A stretch of 64,000 bases of DNA from Chlorobium sp. (GTDB lineage: Bacteria; Bacteroidota; Chlorobiia; Chlorobiales; Chlorobiaceae): positions 7,276-71,275 of the forward strand of contig JANQKB010000051.1 of assembly GCA_028281345.1 (NCBI GenBank), written 5' to 3'. Below are positions 2,275 through 10,312 of the stretch, one piece after another. The position numbers and the translations under genes were made by a program. The notes below the pieces were generated by a model, which ran no database searches, was not told the origin of the DNA, and worked only from the letters and a program-made list of their open reading frames with translations. Each line of letters starts with the position of its first letter. Position 1 is the first letter of the stretch.

Positions 2275-3282
<1,008 letters not shown>

Positions 3283-3301
3283 TACTGCAGCTTGTGTAGT
3301 G

Positions 3302-3391
3302 AAAAAATAAAAAGCGCCCCGAGAAATCAGGACGCTTTTTTTGTGGGCAGGTGTCCCCCATTACACCTGTCCAACCTCACGGGCGTGAGGC
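3302..3391 (-). ncRNA. Candidate small RNA (two hairpins plus terminator; Chlorobi-1-like architecture)
   Basis: Minus strand: hairpin CCUCAC/GUGAGG, hairpin CAGGUGU/ACACCUG, then AGCGUCCUG/CGGGGCGCU plus a U tract. This last stem pairs fully (with G-U pairs) only on the minus strand, where no credible CDS lies. Confidence 0.55.
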
Positions 3392-3653
3392 ATTTCGATA
3401 ATAAAGGATCAAACACCGTGCCAAACATCATAAAACAACGGTAAAAAGCCTTAAGCATCATAAAACAAAAGGGTTGAAAGGTTTTTCTCATGAAACAGTA
3501 TCTGCGTTCTCTGCCTAACAATCCATCTCATATTGATATTTCTTCTCATTTTGAAACCACATATGAAACAATAATCCCTCATTACGTCGCTGAACGTACC
3601 GAATTAAAAACCCTATATTCTCAGAAAACCACTTACAACAATCCCGACACACA

Positions 3654-4325
3654 ATGCGCATTCACGATCTCGATCCTGAAGAAAGACCGCGAGAACGTTT
3701 CCTTCGCTCAGGCGCATCAGCTCTGAGTTCGGCTGAACTGATAGCACTGATCTTAAAAACAGGAACCAAAGGAAAAAACATCCTGGAAGCATGTAACGAG
3801 TTGATGGGCCGTTACGGCCTTGAAAAGCTGGCCGATCTTTCGATGGGAGAGTTGCAGGAAAACGATGGGATAGGACCGGCAAAAGCAATGCAGATACAGG
3901 CTGTTTTTGAATTGCATAAACGTCTGCACTTCAGGCGCAATACCGGAAAAAAGATATCCTCAGCCAGGGGAGTCTTTGAGTATATGAGCGGGAGAATTCC
4001 TGACGAAACAAAAGAGCATCTGTTTTTGCTTCACCTGAATACAAAAAACCAGATCATACGCCACGACATTGTTTCGGTCGGAACGCTGAACGCCTCGCTG
4101 ATTCACCCGAGAGAAATCTTCAAACCGGCCATACGGGAAAGTGCCCATGCCGTTATCCTGGTACACAATCATCCGTCAGGAGATGTTGAACCGAGCAACG
4201 CAGACAAAAAGGTGACAAAACTACTCAAACAGGCTGGTTCAATACTCCAGATCGATCTCCTCGACCACGTGATAGTCGGAAGGGATAACTGGTTCAGCTT
4301 CAGGGAGCAATCATTGCTCGGATAG
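3654..4325 (+). CDS. radC: RadC family JAB-domain protein
   Basis: [39 protein letters not shown]...[12 protein letters not shown]. Confidence 0.95.
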
Positions 4326-4867
4326 CAGGAACAACATTTTTCCTACCTTCATATCCTGTGTTTTTCGAGAATTTACTTGATAATCTCACCATGTTTGGCG
4401 AAATTACGAAGTAAGCGACTTGTTTCAACCTGTTGTAAAAGACACGATACTCTGATCCGGTATTGTGCAGTATATCGTTTACCGTACATTCAGTATCTCC
4501 TTTGCGGCATGTTCTCGTTCCGAAGCCCAATAAACCGGTTGCAAGAGAATATGTTTTTAATGACCCGCAAAATGCTGGAATAAAAAGTCACAAACACCCC
4601 GACCCCCTTAAATCAGATAGATTAACGATTTTTTTTTCACTGTTTCTGATTGAGCCCTCATATGGGTTGAAAATCAAAAACCCGCAGCTTAGGCGGGGCG
4701 ATCCGATTAATCTTAGCCTTTATAAAAAGGAGGTGATAAAAGAGGTTCTACCACTGCAGAGAAGGCAAGCAGTAATGGCAGGCGATAAGAGGAGTACGAG
4801 CATGCTGAAGTTATTTACGTTGTGTTTCCAAGCTTAAATACTAAATGTGAACATTCAGGAGGAAAAC

Positions 4868-5845
4868 ATGAGCAACACCAAGAAGATGCAACAATTTCAG
4901 TACGACCCTAAGTATATAGTAAATTCAGCAGTTGGCAGTGAAAAAGATTTTTGCATGGGGTACCTTAACCCCAGCCCTTCAGGTAATGGTTATATTACCA
5001 CGATCAAGCTCTCCGTCGGATTAGTCAATATTCCACAGTCAGCAATAGGTGGCGTACCGTTTGACAAAGGTACGGCAGGAATCGTTTCCTATGACCGTTG
5101 CGAATGTAATGACGCCTATATCGGCGCAATCAATATGGTGACCGCATCATCCTTCAGCGGTCTGAATGGAGTAATATGGGGCTATGATCTGGCTCGTGCC
5201 GAGAACCTCCGGGATGTCCTTTTATACAAGCAGCCATGGCCTGATGGCTCGAAAACCCCTGTATACAGCATTCACCCTTTGCTTGATACAACCCAGAGAC
5301 TTTTCGGAATAGATTCCCAAAGGCGTTTTAACCCTTTACCGGGTTCCATGGTGGTTTGTGCAAATAAAAACGCCACCAACGACCCCAGTACCCAACCTTG
5401 CGGATGGGCCTGGTCTTTCATCGCCTTATCTATCCTGGAAGATCGCAACAGCGGCTCCAATCTTTTTATCGAAGACTGCGGTTTTATCGAGGGCAATCCC
5501 CCGTATAGCGAGGTAAAAAAAACCATGGATGAAACCCTGCACAAGGTCACTGAATGCGCAGTGCTCTGTGGAGTCGATCAGGACATAAAATACAAAGAAA
5601 CGTTTATCGGTTATAAGCTGGTAAAATTTGGCGATAACCAGGTAGGCTGTGCCCTTGCCTGCGCCCCTTACGTGACCCTGGCAAGGAATGCCATCACCGC
5701 CGGTAAAAACCCTTCGGACCTGACAGACATGACAATCAGCGAATGGGAACAATCGTTGGGTCTGGAACCCCTTCCTCAAATCTCCAAACTGGAGCAGGGC
5801 TTTCTCGGATCGGAAGGCTTTAACGAGCAATACGGGGTTTTGTAA
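4868..5845 (+). CDS. hdcA: Pyruvoyl-dependent histidine decarboxylase proenzyme
   Basis: SYDRCE, autocleavage site NMVTAS/SFSG, VCANK and LFIEDCG correspond to Lactobacillus HdcA Tyr62/Asp63, Ser81-Ser82, Lys155 and Glu197. AGGAGG RBS precedes the ATG at 4868. Confidence 0.85.
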   Translation: MSNTKKMQQFQYDPKYIVNSAVGSEKDFCMGYLNPSPSGNGYITTIKLSVGLVNIPQSAIGGVPFDKGTAGIVSYDRCECNDAYIGAINMVTASSFSGLNGVIWGYDLARAENLRDVLLYKQPWPDGSKTPVYSIHPLLDTTQRLFGIDSQRRFNPLPGSMVVCANKNATNDPSTQPCGWAWSFIALSILEDRNSGSNLFIEDCGFIEGNPPYSEVKKTMDETLHKVTECAVLCGVDQDIKYKETFIGYKLVKFGDNQVGCALACAPYVTLARNAITAGKNPSDLTDMTISEWEQSLGLEPLPQISKLEQGFLGSEGFNEQYGVL

Positions 5846-5877
5846 AGATCCCTTGAACAGTAAAGATACCCCCCCGC

Positions 5878-5917
5878 TTCCCGTACCGGTTCGGCGTTTG
5901 CCGAACCGGTACGGGAA
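5878..5917. other. Perfect 18-bp inverted repeat (hairpin) between hdcA and the peptidase gene
   Basis: ttcccgtaccggttcggc-gttt-gccgaaccggtacgggaa; no U tract on either side. Confidence 0.9.
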
Positions 5918-5948
5918 CTAACGTTAATATCGTGAAAAGGAGGAGACG

Positions 5949-7640
5949 ATGTCCCGGATTATAACAGAAATAATTAACCTTTGGTCGGATCTCAATCCTG
6001 TCGCCGGCTATACCAGCGGTCATCTAAAGGAGTTAAAAACTTTATTTATCCAAACCCCAGGCAATGCCGAAAACATGCGGGCACGCATTGACAACCTGCA
6101 AAAAAGAATTGACGAAATAAAAGACAATATGTTAAAAGCTACGGCCGATGCCGTGTTGGTAGCTCTCAAGACACAGCTGGATATGGCTCGTCCCAGTGGA
6201 GCAGGTCCCTCTGGAACAGGTATGGGAGGCGTTTATGCAGCCGCAGACGGTATTTTTTATATCGTTCTCAAGCAAAACTATCAAGCTGATTTTGTTCCCC
6301 AATATCTGGAAGCTGTAGAAGAAATGGTGCAGTTTGAAACACAAAAATGGCAGTACCAGGAATTTTCCATATTGGTACGTAAAGAGTGTCTGAACACTGT
6401 CAATTATATGAACGGAACGCTGGAGTCACTGTTAAAAGTACGATCCGACCAAAGCACTAAAAAACAAGTGAAAGAAATCCGGCAATCACTTGAAGAGTAT
6501 AAAAACCTTTTTTACATCAAAGGCCTTGACTCTGACCAATTTAAAACCTATTGGCCGATATTCCGGAAATGGGATGAGATAACCGGCCCCCAGGTTACTC
6601 CCGGTTACCCGGCAAGCTTACAAAATTACTATTGTCTGACACAGAGCGCTGACGAGATCAAGACCATGGCACACAGCTGGCTGCAGCAGGACTTACCGGT
6701 AACGATCCACATCGCCGAGAGAATCACGGCCCTGCCTTTTGTGAAATGCGAAGGCAACCTTCAGGAAATCTGGGACAAAGTAAGCAACCATTACAAAGTG
6801 GATTTCGATCAAAAATTGATAGAAGAAGTCAAGAACAGATGTGTTGCATTCGGAGCCCAGTATATCATTAAACCTCCTCCCGGAGACAAGGTAAAATTCG
6901 ATCCTACTCCGGGTTACCTGGTCAACCTCGTGACAGGAGGAGAAGATTTCGCCGTTAATTACCTGGAAGGCAAGAATGCCTACTCCCAACTTTATTTAAC
7001 TGCGTCCAAAAATACGTCATTATTGACCATGATCAATATTTTGGTGCATGAGGCATCCCACGGATATAACTTCGTATTATCGGCAGAACATGCCCAAAAA
7101 TTGCTCAATCTCAACACTTCCCTGGAAGTACCTATGACCGAAGGCATGGCCTTTTATCGGGAATATCAATATTGGGCCGCTGCCCAGGATTTATTGGGAC
7201 AAGACAACTTGACCGACGTTCAAAAAGAGTACCTGGAACTCTATGGCAATAACCCCGAAGAGCAGGAACAAGGCGTGCTTTGTGCACAGCTGGAAACGTA
7301 CATCTGGCGCATCATTCGCTACATAAGAGCCCTTTGCGACGTCAATGTAAACGGAGGCAAAATGACATATACCGATTTCATTGCCTGGGCTGCTTCTGCA
7401 ACCGGATTATCCGAAGAAACCCTGCATGGTGAATGTTTTACCCTGCTTGCATCACCCGGTTATGCCCCCTGTTACGCAGTAGGTGGAGCGACCTATGCCA
7501 TGATGCAGAAAAAAGGGATTAACAAAACGAGCGATAGAGTATCGGAAATAGACTTCAACACCTTTGCTTCGGAGCAGGGTTTTTATGCCTGGCCGATCGC
7601 CGTTGAATTAATGAACGGCTATGTGTCCACAAAACAATGA
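5949..7640 (+). CDS. DUF885-like HExxH metallopeptidase
   Basis: HEASH, downstream TEGMAFYRE (cf. EGWALYAE) and PGYAPCYAVG (cf. PGQA..Y..G); AGGAGG RBS. Confidence 0.7.
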   Translation: MSRIITEIINLWSDLNPVAGYTSGHLKELKTLFIQTPGNAENMRARIDNLQKRIDEIKDNMLKATADAVLVALKTQLDMARPSGAGPSGTGMGGVYAAADGIFYIVLKQNYQADFVPQYLEAVEEMVQFETQKWQYQEFSILVRKECLNTVNYMNGTLESLLKVRSDQSTKKQVKEIRQSLEEYKNLFYIKGLDSDQFKTYWPIFRKWDEITGPQVTPGYPASLQNYYCLTQSADEIKTMAHSWLQQDLPVTIHIAERITALPFVKCEGNLQEIWDKVSNHYKVDFDQKLIEEVKNRCVAFGAQYIIKPPPGDKVKFDPTPGYLVNLVTGGEDFAVNYLEGKNAYSQLYLTASKNTSLLTMINILVHEASHGYNFVLSAEHAQKLLNLNTSLEVPMTEGMAFYREYQYWAAAQDLLGQDNLTDVQKEYLELYGNNPEEQEQGVLCAQLETYIWRIIRYIRALCDVNVNGGKMTYTDFIAWAASATGLSEETLHGECFTLLASPGYAPCYAVGGATYAMMQKKGINKTSDRVSEIDFNTFASEQGFYAWPIAVELMNGYVSTKQ

Positions 7641-8947
7641 GAGGAAAAATCATGAAGGCACAAAAAGACGATGCCCGTCTACCTGAATGTGAAACCGGTG
7701 AAGTAACGAAACTTCCTGGCTATGGCACAGTAAAGGAAAAACAACTGTCGGGGTACCTGCCAGTTACGGACAAAAATGATGCGTTTATCTATTTCTGGTT
7801 TTTCGAATCCCAGGGGAACCCCGATAAAGACCCTATTGTCCTCTGGCTCAACGGCGGACCCGGCTCCTCCAGTTTCATCGGATTATTCGCAGAAAACGGT
7901 CCTTACAAAATCCAAAGAGACAGGCTTTATGTGGATAACTATTATCTCGTGGACAATCCATACAGTTGGAACAAGAATGCCAGCTACTTAATGATCGATC
8001 AGCCTGCCGGGGCCGGCCTGTCCTATGTAACGGACCCGAAAGAATCGGCCAGAACCGAGCAAGAAGCTACCGACCAACTTTACAGGGGCTTACAGTGTTT
8101 TTTCGATCGCTGGCCGGCATACAGGAAACTGGACTTTTATATATTCGGTGAATCCTTTGCCAGGGTGTACATCCCGATGCTGGCAACCGCCATATTGGAC
8201 GAGAACCTGAAAGATCAACCCTACATCAACCTCACAGGAATCGGTGTCGGCGACGGCTTTGTCCATCCCTATATCCAGGAATCGACATACGGGGATTATG
8301 CCTATGCCCACGGTCTTATAGGGTTGAACGAAAAAAAGGAAGCCGATAAACTGTACAGGAAATGTGCTCGGGCCATCAAGCGGTCACAGCCCGTTACCTC
8401 GCGAAGGGCCGACAAAATATGCAACAAAATCGAAGAGTACATTTCAAAGGTAAGCGGTGGTGCAAACGTATATGATGTGCGCCTCATCGGCGATTACAAT
8501 TTCGACATTATCGGCGGGTACCTGGATCAACCTGCGGTTCGCAAAGCCCTGCATGTTTCACCTCACGCCAAGGCCTGGAAAGATACATCCAAACGAATTG
8601 CTTATTTGCTGGAACGTGGGGAACAAAATTCCTATGCCGATTTATATCCGCGGCTGTTTGAATCGTTACCGGTACTTATTTATAACGGTATATATGATAT
8701 GGACTGTAATTTCATGGGAACCGATGCCTGGATAAAAGCACTGGACTGGTCCTACAAAAAACAGTTTTTAGAGCAAGAACGTCTACCATGGTTCAACGAA
8801 GGACAATTGGCAGGCCATATCCGCTCCTACAACAACCTGACACAGGTGTTGGTAGCCGGCGCCGGGCACTTGGTTCCGCTGGATCAACCGAAACATGCCT
8901 TGGCGTTATTGAATAACTTTACACAAAAAAAGCCACCCACCCTGTGA
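7637..8947 (+). CDS. Serine carboxypeptidase, family S10
   Basis: SGYL, YFWFFES, PIVLWLNGGPGSSS, NASYLMIDQPAGAGLSY, GESFA (Ser), YDMDC (Asp), AGHLVP (His). ATGA overlap with the upstream gene; no signal peptide. Confidence 0.9.
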   Translation: MRGKIMKAQKDDARLPECETGEVTKLPGYGTVKEKQLSGYLPVTDKNDAFIYFWFFESQGNPDKDPIVLWLNGGPGSSSFIGLFAENGPYKIQRDRLYVDNYYLVDNPYSWNKNASYLMIDQPAGAGLSYVTDPKESARTEQEATDQLYRGLQCFFDRWPAYRKLDFYIFGESFARVYIPMLATAILDENLKDQPYINLTGIGVGDGFVHPYIQESTYGDYAYAHGLIGLNEKKEADKLYRKCARAIKRSQPVTSRRADKICNKIEEYISKVSGGANVYDVRLIGDYNFDIIGGYLDQPAVRKALHVSPHAKAWKDTSKRIAYLLERGEQNSYADLYPRLFESLPVLIYNGIYDMDCNFMGTDAWIKALDWSYKKQFLEQERLPWFNEGQLAGHIRSYNNLTQVLVAGAGHLVPLDQPKHALALLNNFTQKKPPTL

Positions 8948-9091
8948 CGTTGAGCCAAGCAACGCGGACAAGCAGATAACATCCATCCTAAACAGACCGG
9001 TTCAATCATCCAGATCGATCTCCTCGACCACGTGATAGCCGGAAGGGATAACTGGTTCAGCTTCAGGGGACATTCAATGCCGGGCTCATAG
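8946..9091 (+). pseudogene. Duplicated, diverged radC 3' end (~48 codons, one frameshift)
   Basis: Translates as [15 protein letters not shown](k)[32 protein letters not shown], versus intact Rad[48 protein letters not shown]. Confidence 0.9.
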
Positions 9092-9108
9092 CAGCGAGAA
9101 AAATCGCA

Positions 9109-9396
9109 TCATTGACCTGTGACGCTCTCACCTTGCTGAACAAAAGCCTGAGGGTGAACGGAAGGCTGAACAGGTGTTTCGCTCTGGCAAATTTCACAGA
9201 CATTTTTCGCCTGCAGGCCTTTTTGAGTCTGGTCAATTTCAAACTCTACCTCAGCATCCTGGTTCAAAACCTTGAAGCTCTGGTCGGAAATGATGGCTGA
9301 AAAATGGACAAAAATATCTTCGCCTCCATCCGGGTTGACAATAAAGCCATAACCCTTCTTGCCATCAAACCACTTGACTTTACTTTTCCTTTGCAT
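9109..9396 (-). CDS. Cold-shock domain protein with C-terminal extension
   Basis: [29 protein letters not shown]...KGLQAKNV. The ATG at 9396 is preferred. Confidence 0.93.
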
Positions 9397-9580
9397 GATC
9401 AAAACTGGGGGTTTATCCTTAAAGGTAGATGCAGTTGTATAACTGCATCGCGGGAGTGCTATACAGAAGAAATATAGGTTAATTATCAAGACGCAACAAC
9501 ATTTTGAGCATTTTTTTCGAAGTTAATACAGCGATTTCTTGACACAGGACGGCTATCACAACCATTTTAAGTCCCTTTTT

Positions 9581-10312
9581 ATGCAGAATATCATCTTACT
9601 TACCGGTGCCGGCAAAGGTATCGGAAAAGCGATCGCCCTTGAATTTGCAGCAAGAGCCCGGAGCAATCCGTCCTTTAATCCGGTACTGGTGCTTTGTTCC
9701 CGCACCATTACCGACATTGAAAACATTGCGAATGAATGCGAAGCGCTGGGCACGAAAGCAGTTGCAATAGAAGCCGATATAGCAAATCTTGACGATATCG
9801 ACCGGCTTGTAACCAGTACCCTTGAGAAGTTCGGCACCGTAGACTGTCTGATCAACAACGCAGGTGTTGGACGGTTCAAAAGCTTCACTGAACTTAATGA
9901 AGAAGATTTCGACTATACCATGTCAGTAAACATGAAAGGAACTTTTTTTCTGACCCAGAAAGTGTTCCCTGTCATGGAAAGCAGACGTTCAGGCCATATT
10001 TTTTTCATCACTTCCATTGCGGCCGAAACTGCTTTCAAAAGCTCCTCGATCTACTCCATGTCAAAATTCGGACAGAAAGGACTTGTTGAAGCCCTTCGGC
10101 TCTACGGCAGGGAATGCAATGTTAAAATCACCAATGTCATGCCGGGAGCGGTTTATACCCCAATGTGGGGTAATGCCGGAGAAGAGTTCAGGAACGTGAT
10201 GATGATGCCAGAGGATATCGCCGGGCCGGTTGTCAATGCATACCTTCAGCCGCACAGAACATCCGTGGAAGAAATTGTTATGAGACCTGTCGGAGGAGAT
10301 ATCAATAGTTAA
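9581..10312 (+). CDS. Short-chain dehydrogenase, Chlorobium-type sepiapterin reductase
   Basis: TGAGKGIG, NNAGVG and YSMSK motifs. The sequence closely follows the C. tepidum sepiapterin reductase as recalled (FNPVLVLCSR, MMMPEDIA.PVV.AYLQP). Confidence 0.85.
   Translation: MQNIILLTGAGKGIGKAIALEFAARARSNPSFNPVLVLCSRTITDIENIANECEALGTKAVAIEADIANLDDIDRLVTSTLEKFGTVDCLINNAGVGRFKSFTELNEEDFDYTMSVNMKGTFFLTQKVFPVMESRRSGHIFFITSIAAETAFKSSSIYSMSKFGQKGLVEALRLYGRECNVKITNVMPGAVYTPMWGNAGEEFRNVMMMPEDIAGPVVNAYLQPHRTSVEEIVMRPVGGDINS

Follow-up and report, generated by a model that had tools for sequence, protein, structure and literature searches.

What does a histidine decarboxylase do in a green sulfur bacterium when the other genes of a classical histidine decarboxylase locus are missing around it? 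This question is raised by an open reading frame at positions 4868-5845 (+) of a 64,000-nt stretch of Chlorobium sp. DNA (contig JANQKB010000051.1; the whole stretch is referred to below as the window), which encodes a predicted pyruvoyl-dependent histidine decarboxylase (HDC) proenzyme from a divergent clade of the HdcA family. An earlier model-made annotation of this DNA (the original prediction) handled the gene as a stand-alone hdcA. It is instead the first gene of a conserved operon, in which it is followed by genes for a DUF885-type metallohydrolase and a serine carboxypeptidase of family S10. We favor, at a probability of roughly 0.55, the reading that the two hydrolases would release histidine from peptides and that HDC would convert it to histamine. 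The enzyme family is a known one, whereas the architecture of the operon is widely distributed yet undescribed: the literature searched held no description of an HDC-DUF885-S10 cassette, and nothing relevant was found there for Prosthecochloris and HDC, DUF885 and HDC, Methanosarcina HDC, or bacterial S10 and HDC.

The reading frame is uninterrupted over 325 codons and carries an AGGAGG ribosome-binding site 7 nt 5' of its start. Membership of the pyruvoyl HDC family was confirmed by profile search, in which the protein matched Pfam PF02329 (HDC) with 227.5 bits (E 2.6e-67; cut-off 25) over nearly the full profile (positions 10-294 of 294). The TAS/SF, SYDRxE, ANK and FIED motifs on which the original prediction relied are all present, and they do equal functional residues of the Lactobacillus 30a enzyme. 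This was established with a phmmer alignment to both chains of that enzyme (1hq6/1pya), whose numbering is used for it here, and with an 83-sequence family alignment that takes in HdcA from the hdcC-hdcA-hdcB-hisS plasmid clusters of Tetragenococcus halophilus and Limosilactobacillus reuteri. The TAS/SF site (A93-S94/S95-F96) corresponds to A80-S81/S82-F83 of L. 30a, the Ser-Ser serinolysis site, which places the predicted cleavage at S94/S95; S82 becomes the N-terminal pyruvoyl group of the alpha chain. SYDRCE (S74-E79) carries the equivalents of Y62, D63 and E66 (HDC Y75, D76 and E79), ANK (A165-K167) that of K155 (HDC K167), and FIED (F200-D203) those of F195, E197 and D198 (HDC F200, E202 and D203), while HDC I72 equals I59. 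Across the 83 sequences, I59, Y62, D63, E66, S81, S82, F83, K155, E197 and D198 are invariant, and the mapped positions as a whole are invariant or nearly so. As to their roles, we take E197 to be the proton donor, D63 and the carboxylate of S81 to bind the imidazole, and I59, Y62 and F195 to form the pocket, with K155 and E66 as further members of the set (structural literature such as Gallagher et al. 1989, as listed in the references of PMC8465708).

The fold agrees with this assignment. An AlphaFold2 model of HDC (predicted local distance difference test, pLDDT, 80.1; predicted template-modelling score 0.84) had as its top PDB match chain B of 1PYA, the HDC alpha/beta sandwich (template-modelling (TM) score 0.82 on the target, root-mean-square deviation 2.6 Å, E 9e-15), and as its second match a distantly related pyruvoyl arginine decarboxylase. 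Pairwise ratios of nonsynonymous to synonymous substitution rates (dN/dS) were 0.06-0.12 for HDC and for the adjoining DUF885 and S10 genes, both against the nearest genome, the coral-skeleton metagenome-assembled genome (MAG) Prosthecochloris sp. A305, and against more distant copies; therefore, all three genes are under purifying selection. These ratios and the intact catalytic residues support the earlier judgement of "probably active", and on sequence grounds 4868-5845 very likely encodes an active pyruvoyl decarboxylase. L-histidine is the probable substrate, given that the pocket is unchanged throughout, including the imidazole ligands D63 and S81. Additionally, HDCs that are about 55% identical and lie in the next-but-one clade stand beside APC antiporters and a lysine/ornithine-type decarboxylase, as in classical biogenic-amine loci, and by analogy this setting counts toward histidine specificity.

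The absence of an adjacent hdcB or antiporter gene, which had been remarked before, extends to the whole genome. No transporter gene lies within 10 kb of HDC, and whole-genome tblastn searches gave nothing significant for either HdcC of T. halophilus and L. reuteri (best E 0.56) or HdcB (best E 0.002 over 61 aa). Similarly, HdcB had no match in any of the non-Firmicute loci fetched.

What accompanies the gene is a pair of hydrolases on the same strand. HDC is followed by a gap of 103 nt and then by the DUF885 gene (5949-7640, +), which overlaps the S10 gene (7637-8947, +) by 4 nt (ATGA). The DUF885 protein is a gluzincin-like hydrolase of 563 aa (Pfam DUF885, 38.6 bits) whose H367-E-A-S-H371 motif and E398 are invariant in an alignment of ten sequences with a mean column identity of 67%. 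A phmmer search with it against PDB chains gave no match, and only a fold search linked it to DUF885 structures: its AlphaFold2 model (pLDDT 81.7) is closest in fold to 3IUK, 3O0Y and 3U24 (TM 0.55-0.66), with weaker matches to M3 and ACE clamshell peptidases. Its subfamily comprises 126 database proteins, 42-99% identical and all named "hypothetical". The S10 protein (436 aa; Pfam Peptidase_S10, 351 bits) matches cathepsin A and carboxypeptidase Y along its whole length at about 200 bits and keeps GESF, YDM, GAGH and WLNGGPG; we take the serine of GESF, the aspartate of YDM and the histidine of GAGH to be the catalytic triad, and the N-G-G and E-S motifs to bind the substrate carboxylate. No N-terminal signal sequence is recognisable by eye in HDC, DUF885 or S10, and the two hydrolases would act as cytosolic peptidases. 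A known defence system is unlikely, since the PADLOC models gave no match for HDC, DUF885 or S10. One database protein of 979 aa (P0193) joins the DUF885 subfamily to an S10 domain; the fusion may be natural, or a frameshift artefact at the ATGA overlap may have produced it.

The gap between HDC and DUF885 holds a perfect 18-bp hairpin without a U-tract (5878-5917, +), whose centroid fold has a free energy of -37.7 kcal/mol (z -5.9 versus shuffles). The hairpin is kept in A305 with an inverted loop, and hairpins of unrelated sequence occur at the same place in the cassettes of loci L110 and L088. It is a feature conserved by position and could serve to terminate transcription in part or, as a stem, to stabilise the mRNA.

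The evidence that the three genes belong together is comparative. A cassette was defined as a pyruvoyl decarboxylase gene adjoining a member of the DUF885 subfamily (HEASHG...TEG) and an S10, C69 or phospholipase-B-like hydrolase, compactly arranged on one strand, and 4868-8947 is such a cassette. Its occurrence was surveyed from the HDC side, with HDC homologues in 80 genome loci, and from the DUF885 side, with 24 metagenome loci and three further look-ups. The order HDC-DUF885-S10 recurs in a Desulfobacteraceae MAG, four Actinomycetota (including Nocardioides vastitatis), a Thermoplasmatota archaeon, Roseibium and several further assemblies; Methanosarcina barkeri has HDC-C69 dipeptidase-DUF885, and a Nitrospirota MAG has HDC-DUF885-phospholipase-B-like. 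An all-against-all comparison of the flanks revealed no fourth conserved gene around the cassettes. The family and the cassette are spread over many bacterial phyla and archaea. Pyruvoyl HDCs are indeed known from Gram-positive bacteria, as the original prediction stated, but occurrence outside that group is less exceptional than it implied.

On the DUF885 side, the gene is almost always followed by S10 and otherwise by a C69 or phospholipase-B-like gene, and in 17 of the 19 loci with enough flank it adjoins a pyruvoyl decarboxylase. The latter is either HDC or a protein of ~470-660 aa with PSDC and PS_Dcarbxylase domains, which heads or follows DUF885-S10 in L117-L124, L132 and L114, for example in Pedobacter nototheniae. 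When one protein of this second type was compared with the PDB, the best match was the fungal tryptophan decarboxylase PsiD (95 bits, versus 36 bits for phosphatidylserine decarboxylase). The DUF885 tree shows at least two switches of decarboxylase type and at least four of the third hydrolase; in the HDC tree, at least three to four separate lineages carry the triad. HDC of the window falls into a fully supported clade of six, together with those of the Desulfobacteraceae MAG, M. barkeri and others; no antiporter accompanies any of the six, and each has a peptidase, DUF885 or PSD-type gene as neighbour. Next to this clade and two DUF885-linked loci lies a lineage of Bacteroidota HDCs that stand beside APC antiporters. 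Because an independent association has been repeated across domains of life, the comparative evidence is strong that the three genes work together. Two further arrangements were seen in these surveys. A PSD-family gene also follows HDC in L088, L090, L058 and L073, and the hdc loci of gut Bacteroides (L023-L029) consist of HDC, an APC antiporter and a C69 dipeptidase, so that a peptidase partner occurs in antiporter-type loci as well.

How these genes might work together can be outlined as follows. The HDC proenzyme would cleave itself by serinolysis at S94/S95 without HdcB. The DUF885 zinc hydrolase and S10 would shorten cytosolic or imported oligopeptides from the C-terminus until histidine is set free, and HDC would turn this histidine into histamine and CO2 in the cytoplasm. 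Peptide-bound residues are no substrate for a pyruvoyl enzyme, which depends on a free alpha-amino group. Of the enzymes that replace S10, C69 is a dipeptidase family, which fits a last step on very short peptides, and the phospholipase-B-like proteins are N-terminal nucleophile (Ntn) hydrolases. Such a peptide-to-biogenic-amine route would take the place of the histidine/histamine antiporter of classical hdc loci, with HDC as the putative promoter-proximal gene of a three-gene cassette; the carrier is a ~4.8-kb islet of a coral-associated Prosthecochloris lineage. What we infer in this outline is that histidine is the substrate, that DUF885 and S10 act as peptidases, in which order the steps run and what physiological purpose they have. 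The purpose could be proton consumption in the cytoplasm, or histamine could be released as a signal in the coral skeleton. A role of histamine toward the host or neighbouring organisms, raised speculatively in the original prediction, is possible, and what newly speaks for it is ecological only: the metagenomes that hold islet DNA, drawn from at least seven studies, are mostly coral, coral-reef and marine ones.

Several observations weigh against the peptide-to-histamine route. Against the TIGR00541 equivalog profile ("histidine decarboxylase, pyruvoyl type"), HDC scores 219.7 bits, which is below the cut-off of 346.65; six clade relatives and other members of the family miss it too (207-254 bits). 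Its clade sits on a long stem branch (0.73) in the HDC tree and has fixed substitutions beside active-site residues (Q74A, T/C84S, A199C and H/F149M in L. 30a numbering), which flank F83, D198 and residues of the K155 region. The literature searched contained no characterised member of the HDC clade, the DUF885 subfamily or the bacterial cytosolic S10 group, and none of the RNA-seq runs searched contained the HDC gene, so that expression of the cassette is predicted only. The same DUF885-S10 pair serves PsiD-like decarboxylases; it is thus not specific to histidine and would fit a maturation or conjugation function too. The classical proton-motive or acid-resistance cycle is not evident, because the genome has no HdcP-type antiporter and the cassette has no transporter. 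Finally, a second HDC gene in the same genome could be the main histamine producer.

This second gene was found by a family search of the whole assembly on another contig (C28:22464-23327, -; locus L004 9450-10574). Its product is more canonical than HDC of the window: it passes the TIGR00541 cut-off with 408.2 bits, is 44-46% identical to Firmicute enzymes and belongs to the other deep half of the HDC tree. It was not found in any of 60 related genomes. Phylogeny, proposed earlier as a check, places the 4868-5845 protein in a divergent clade with a long stem; the second HdcA had been overlooked. The second gene is directly followed by a gene for a 494-aa HATPase_c_2-GNAT fusion, with an APC permease 2.7 kb away. 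The fusion was considered as a partner of HDC and rejected, as no such fusion stands beside HDC genes elsewhere.

Among the other explanations that the same data allow, one is that HDC decarboxylates another amino acid or a modified histidine and that the cassette processes a specific metabolite. The subthreshold TIGR00541 score, the long stem and the substitutions near the active site would all be expected from a shift of this kind, as would the coexistence of a canonical HdcA in the genome, since paralogues often diverge. However, D63, S81 and the other mapped pocket residues are invariant or nearly so across 83 members, including HdcA from characterised clusters, and related HDCs only a few nodes away are paired with amino-acid/amine antiporters; a different substrate is thus judged unlikely. 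A second explanation concerns the partners. DUF885 and the third hydrolase may supply no substrate and instead be maturation or quality-control factors for pyruvoyl proenzymes, analogous to HdcB, PanZ/PanM and PrdH. A self-cleaving pyruvoyl proenzyme is the only property common to the HDC-type and PsiD-like heads of the cassette, HdcB was not found in the genome or in any non-Firmicute locus fetched, and several pyruvoyl enzymes are known to have accessory maturation factors (PMC11929908; PMC11229817). Nevertheless, many HDC-family genes have neither HdcB nor DUF885 beside them, so that proenzymes of this family evidently often mature on their own; to aid one cleavage with two large, catalytically intact hydrolases would be costly; and the free exchange of S10 for dipeptidase-type enzymes suggests a generic small-peptide substrate. 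We regard a maturation role as improbable. Still less credit is due to the view, implicit in the original annotation, that HDC is a stand-alone acid-stress enzyme and its adjacency to two peptidase genes meaningless. The family is classically an acid-resistance or energy device, and a strong hairpin parts HDC from the downstream genes. Yet the trio recurs in unrelated contexts in many phyla and in archaea with no other gene conserved around it, the association has formed repeatedly with different HDC lineages, and there is no antiporter. The comparative data argue strongly against a meaningless adjacency, which we consider very improbable.

The remaining explanation keeps the three genes in one pathway and reverses its direction. 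The cassette would be biosynthetic, with the S10, C69 or phospholipase-B-like acyl-enzyme transferring an acyl or peptidyl group onto an amine to give N-acyl or N-peptidyl amines, and with DUF885 preparing or trimming the donor. The amine, if this doubtful scheme applied, would be histamine here and an aromatic amine in the PsiD-type cassettes. All of the interchangeable third enzymes use a covalent acyl-enzyme; carboxypeptidase Y catalyses aminolysis, and plant serine carboxypeptidase-like (SCPL) proteins are acyltransferases. Moreover, the cassette has no amine exporter, and the decarboxylase is swapped while DUF885 and the hydrolase stay, as would be expected for a variable amine building block. 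On the other hand, the cassette contains no gene for acyl-donor activation, a carrier protein or a precursor peptide, S10 keeps carboxypeptidase-type motifs for carboxylate binding, and no product is known. A biosynthetic cassette is hence not likely. There is also little probability that the DUF885 subfamily and an acyl-enzyme hydrolase are the constant core of an unrecognised, horizontally mobile cytosolic pathway that recruits any available pyruvoyl amino-acid decarboxylase (HdcA-type or PsiD-like) and makes a new class of amine conjugates by aminolysis. If this were the case, N-peptidyl or N-acyl derivatives of histamine or of arylamines, made by Prosthecochloris in coral skeletons, could affect the animal that hosts it or the microbes around it.

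The manner in which the cassette reached this genome can be read from its borders. An intact radC gene (3654-4325; Pfam RadC and UPF0758_N domains) lies upstream, and its 3' end (4182-4328, +) is a direct repeat, 81% identical over 150 nt to a decayed second copy at 8946-9094 (+), which directly follows the S10 stop codon and forms the end of the islet. Between the left repeat and HDC is a non-coding leader of ~540 nt (4329-4867, +) that is ~80-98% conserved in A305 and a metagenome contig. Four islet-free congeners were fetched for comparison. In three of them, the gene order is mdh-radC-csp-SDR with csp right after radC, and in the fourth, radC is likewise without islet genes after it. The second partial radC copy occurs only in this genome and in the A305-like genome G005. 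The HDC family was detected in 2 of 61 related genomes, namely these same two, of which G005 has only the type at 4868-5845, and the full-length S10 gene is restricted to the same 2 of 61. The radC 3' duplicate, the empty site in relatives and the 2/61 distribution identify the ~4.8-kb unit of leader, HDC, DUF885 and S10 as an insertion at the 3' end of radC, between radC and the cold-shock gene. The earlier suggestion that HDC was horizontally acquired is therefore well supported by these comparisons of gene order and distribution.

No integrase or transposase gene is present in the islet, and base composition does not mark it (GC 46.3% versus 48.3% for the genome). The two radC 3' copies are too similar in their identities to islet-free relatives for the native copy to be told apart. 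An ISL3-family transposase gene (L088 4417-5637) directly upstream of a 75%-identical HDC-DUF885-S10 cassette hints at a mode of movement. The placement of the islet is not an assembly artefact, because both of its junctions are spanned by single contigs from two other studies (10.3 kb from run X4 and 5.4 kb from X11). The indels listed for the X4 and X11 variants spare all three genes and are confined to the leader, the region of the intergenic hairpin, the remnant of radC and the DNA downstream of the islet.

In comparison to known systems, HDC of the window resembles the HdcA enzymes of L. 30a (1PYA/1HQ6), T. halophilus and L. reuteri in its Pfam family, fold, Ser-Ser site and set of catalytic and pocket residues, and it is 33-35% identical to the latter two. 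It differs from the L. 30a enzyme in not keeping the pH-sensing D53/D54 pair, in place of which it has D-K in an inserted loop, and from these HdcA proteins by a conserved C-terminal extension. Like the T. halophilus and L. reuteri hdc clusters, the locus is horizontally mobile; those plasmid clusters are flanked by insertion sequence elements. Unlike the hdcP(hdcC)-hdcA-hdcB-hisS arrangement, however, it has no linked antiporter, HdcB or hisS, and its partners are two hydrolases. The solved DUF885 proteins 3IUK, 3O0Y and 3U24 (PF05960), which are of unknown function and described as putative lipoproteins, share fold and HExxH with the middle gene product, whereas the latter belongs to a divergent, tight subfamily and, judged by eye, carries no signal peptide. 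Most S10 enzymes are eukaryotic and either secretory or lysosomal, and the third gene product again differs from cathepsin A and carboxypeptidase Y in lacking a recognisable signal peptide. The L-tryptophan decarboxylase PsiD, of the PSD superfamily, is likewise a self-cleaving pyruvoyl amino-acid decarboxylase but is unrelated to HDC in fold and family (PMC11929908). PsiD-like proteins are the alternative head beside DUF885-S10 in many loci and are absent from the 64-kb window.

Pyruvoyl HDCs have so far been studied almost only as antiporter-coupled systems of acid resistance or food spoilage in Gram-positive and gut bacteria. A GTDB survey by Mou et al. (2021) reported "histamine secretion" clusters, consisting of a pyruvoyl HDC and an adjoining antiporter, in six phyla, including some outside the Firmicutes (PMC8465708). 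As an antiporter was required, cassettes such as HDC-DUF885-S10 were excluded by design, and Chlorobiota and archaea were not among the phyla; surveys of "histamine-producing bacteria" built in this way would miss such HDC genes. In the HDC tree, the Bacteroidota antiporter-type HDCs of the kind surveyed are near neighbours of the lineage to which the 4868-5845 gene belongs. A large uncharacterised part of the HDC family sits in a compact mobile hydrolase cassette in green sulfur bacteria, sulfate reducers, actinomycetes and archaea. For one DUF885 subfamily and for the cytosolic S10 carboxypeptidases of bacteria, the cassette is the first functional context open to testing, and it points to a possible exporter-independent route to biogenic amines. 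It would also place a predicted histamine-forming capacity in endolithic phototrophs of coral skeletons, a habitat in which an animal-active amine might be of consequence.

The remaining observations concern the leader and the DNA upstream of radC. A reading frame of 124 aa in the leader (4463-4837) was considered as a gene and rejected, as it carries indels that are not multiples of three in A305 and the metagenome contig, and the region is taken as non-coding. Just 5' of the HDC start is an 11-codon mini-frame, MLKLFTLCFQA (4802-4837, +), which has AGGAG upstream, no His codons, and a length of 9 codons in A305. A scan for promoters and terminators returned no signal exceeding that of shuffled sequence, and no sigma-70 promoter stood out clearly in the leader. 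No riboswitch or T-box was detected in the leader when 3200-9600 was searched with Rfam at a permissive threshold. The sole match in that search was a Chlorobi-1 RNA (RF01696; 80 bits versus a gathering score of 50) at 3330-3396 (-), between mdh and radC, and it agrees with A305 as the nearest genome in confirming that the host is a green sulfur bacterium, as originally named.

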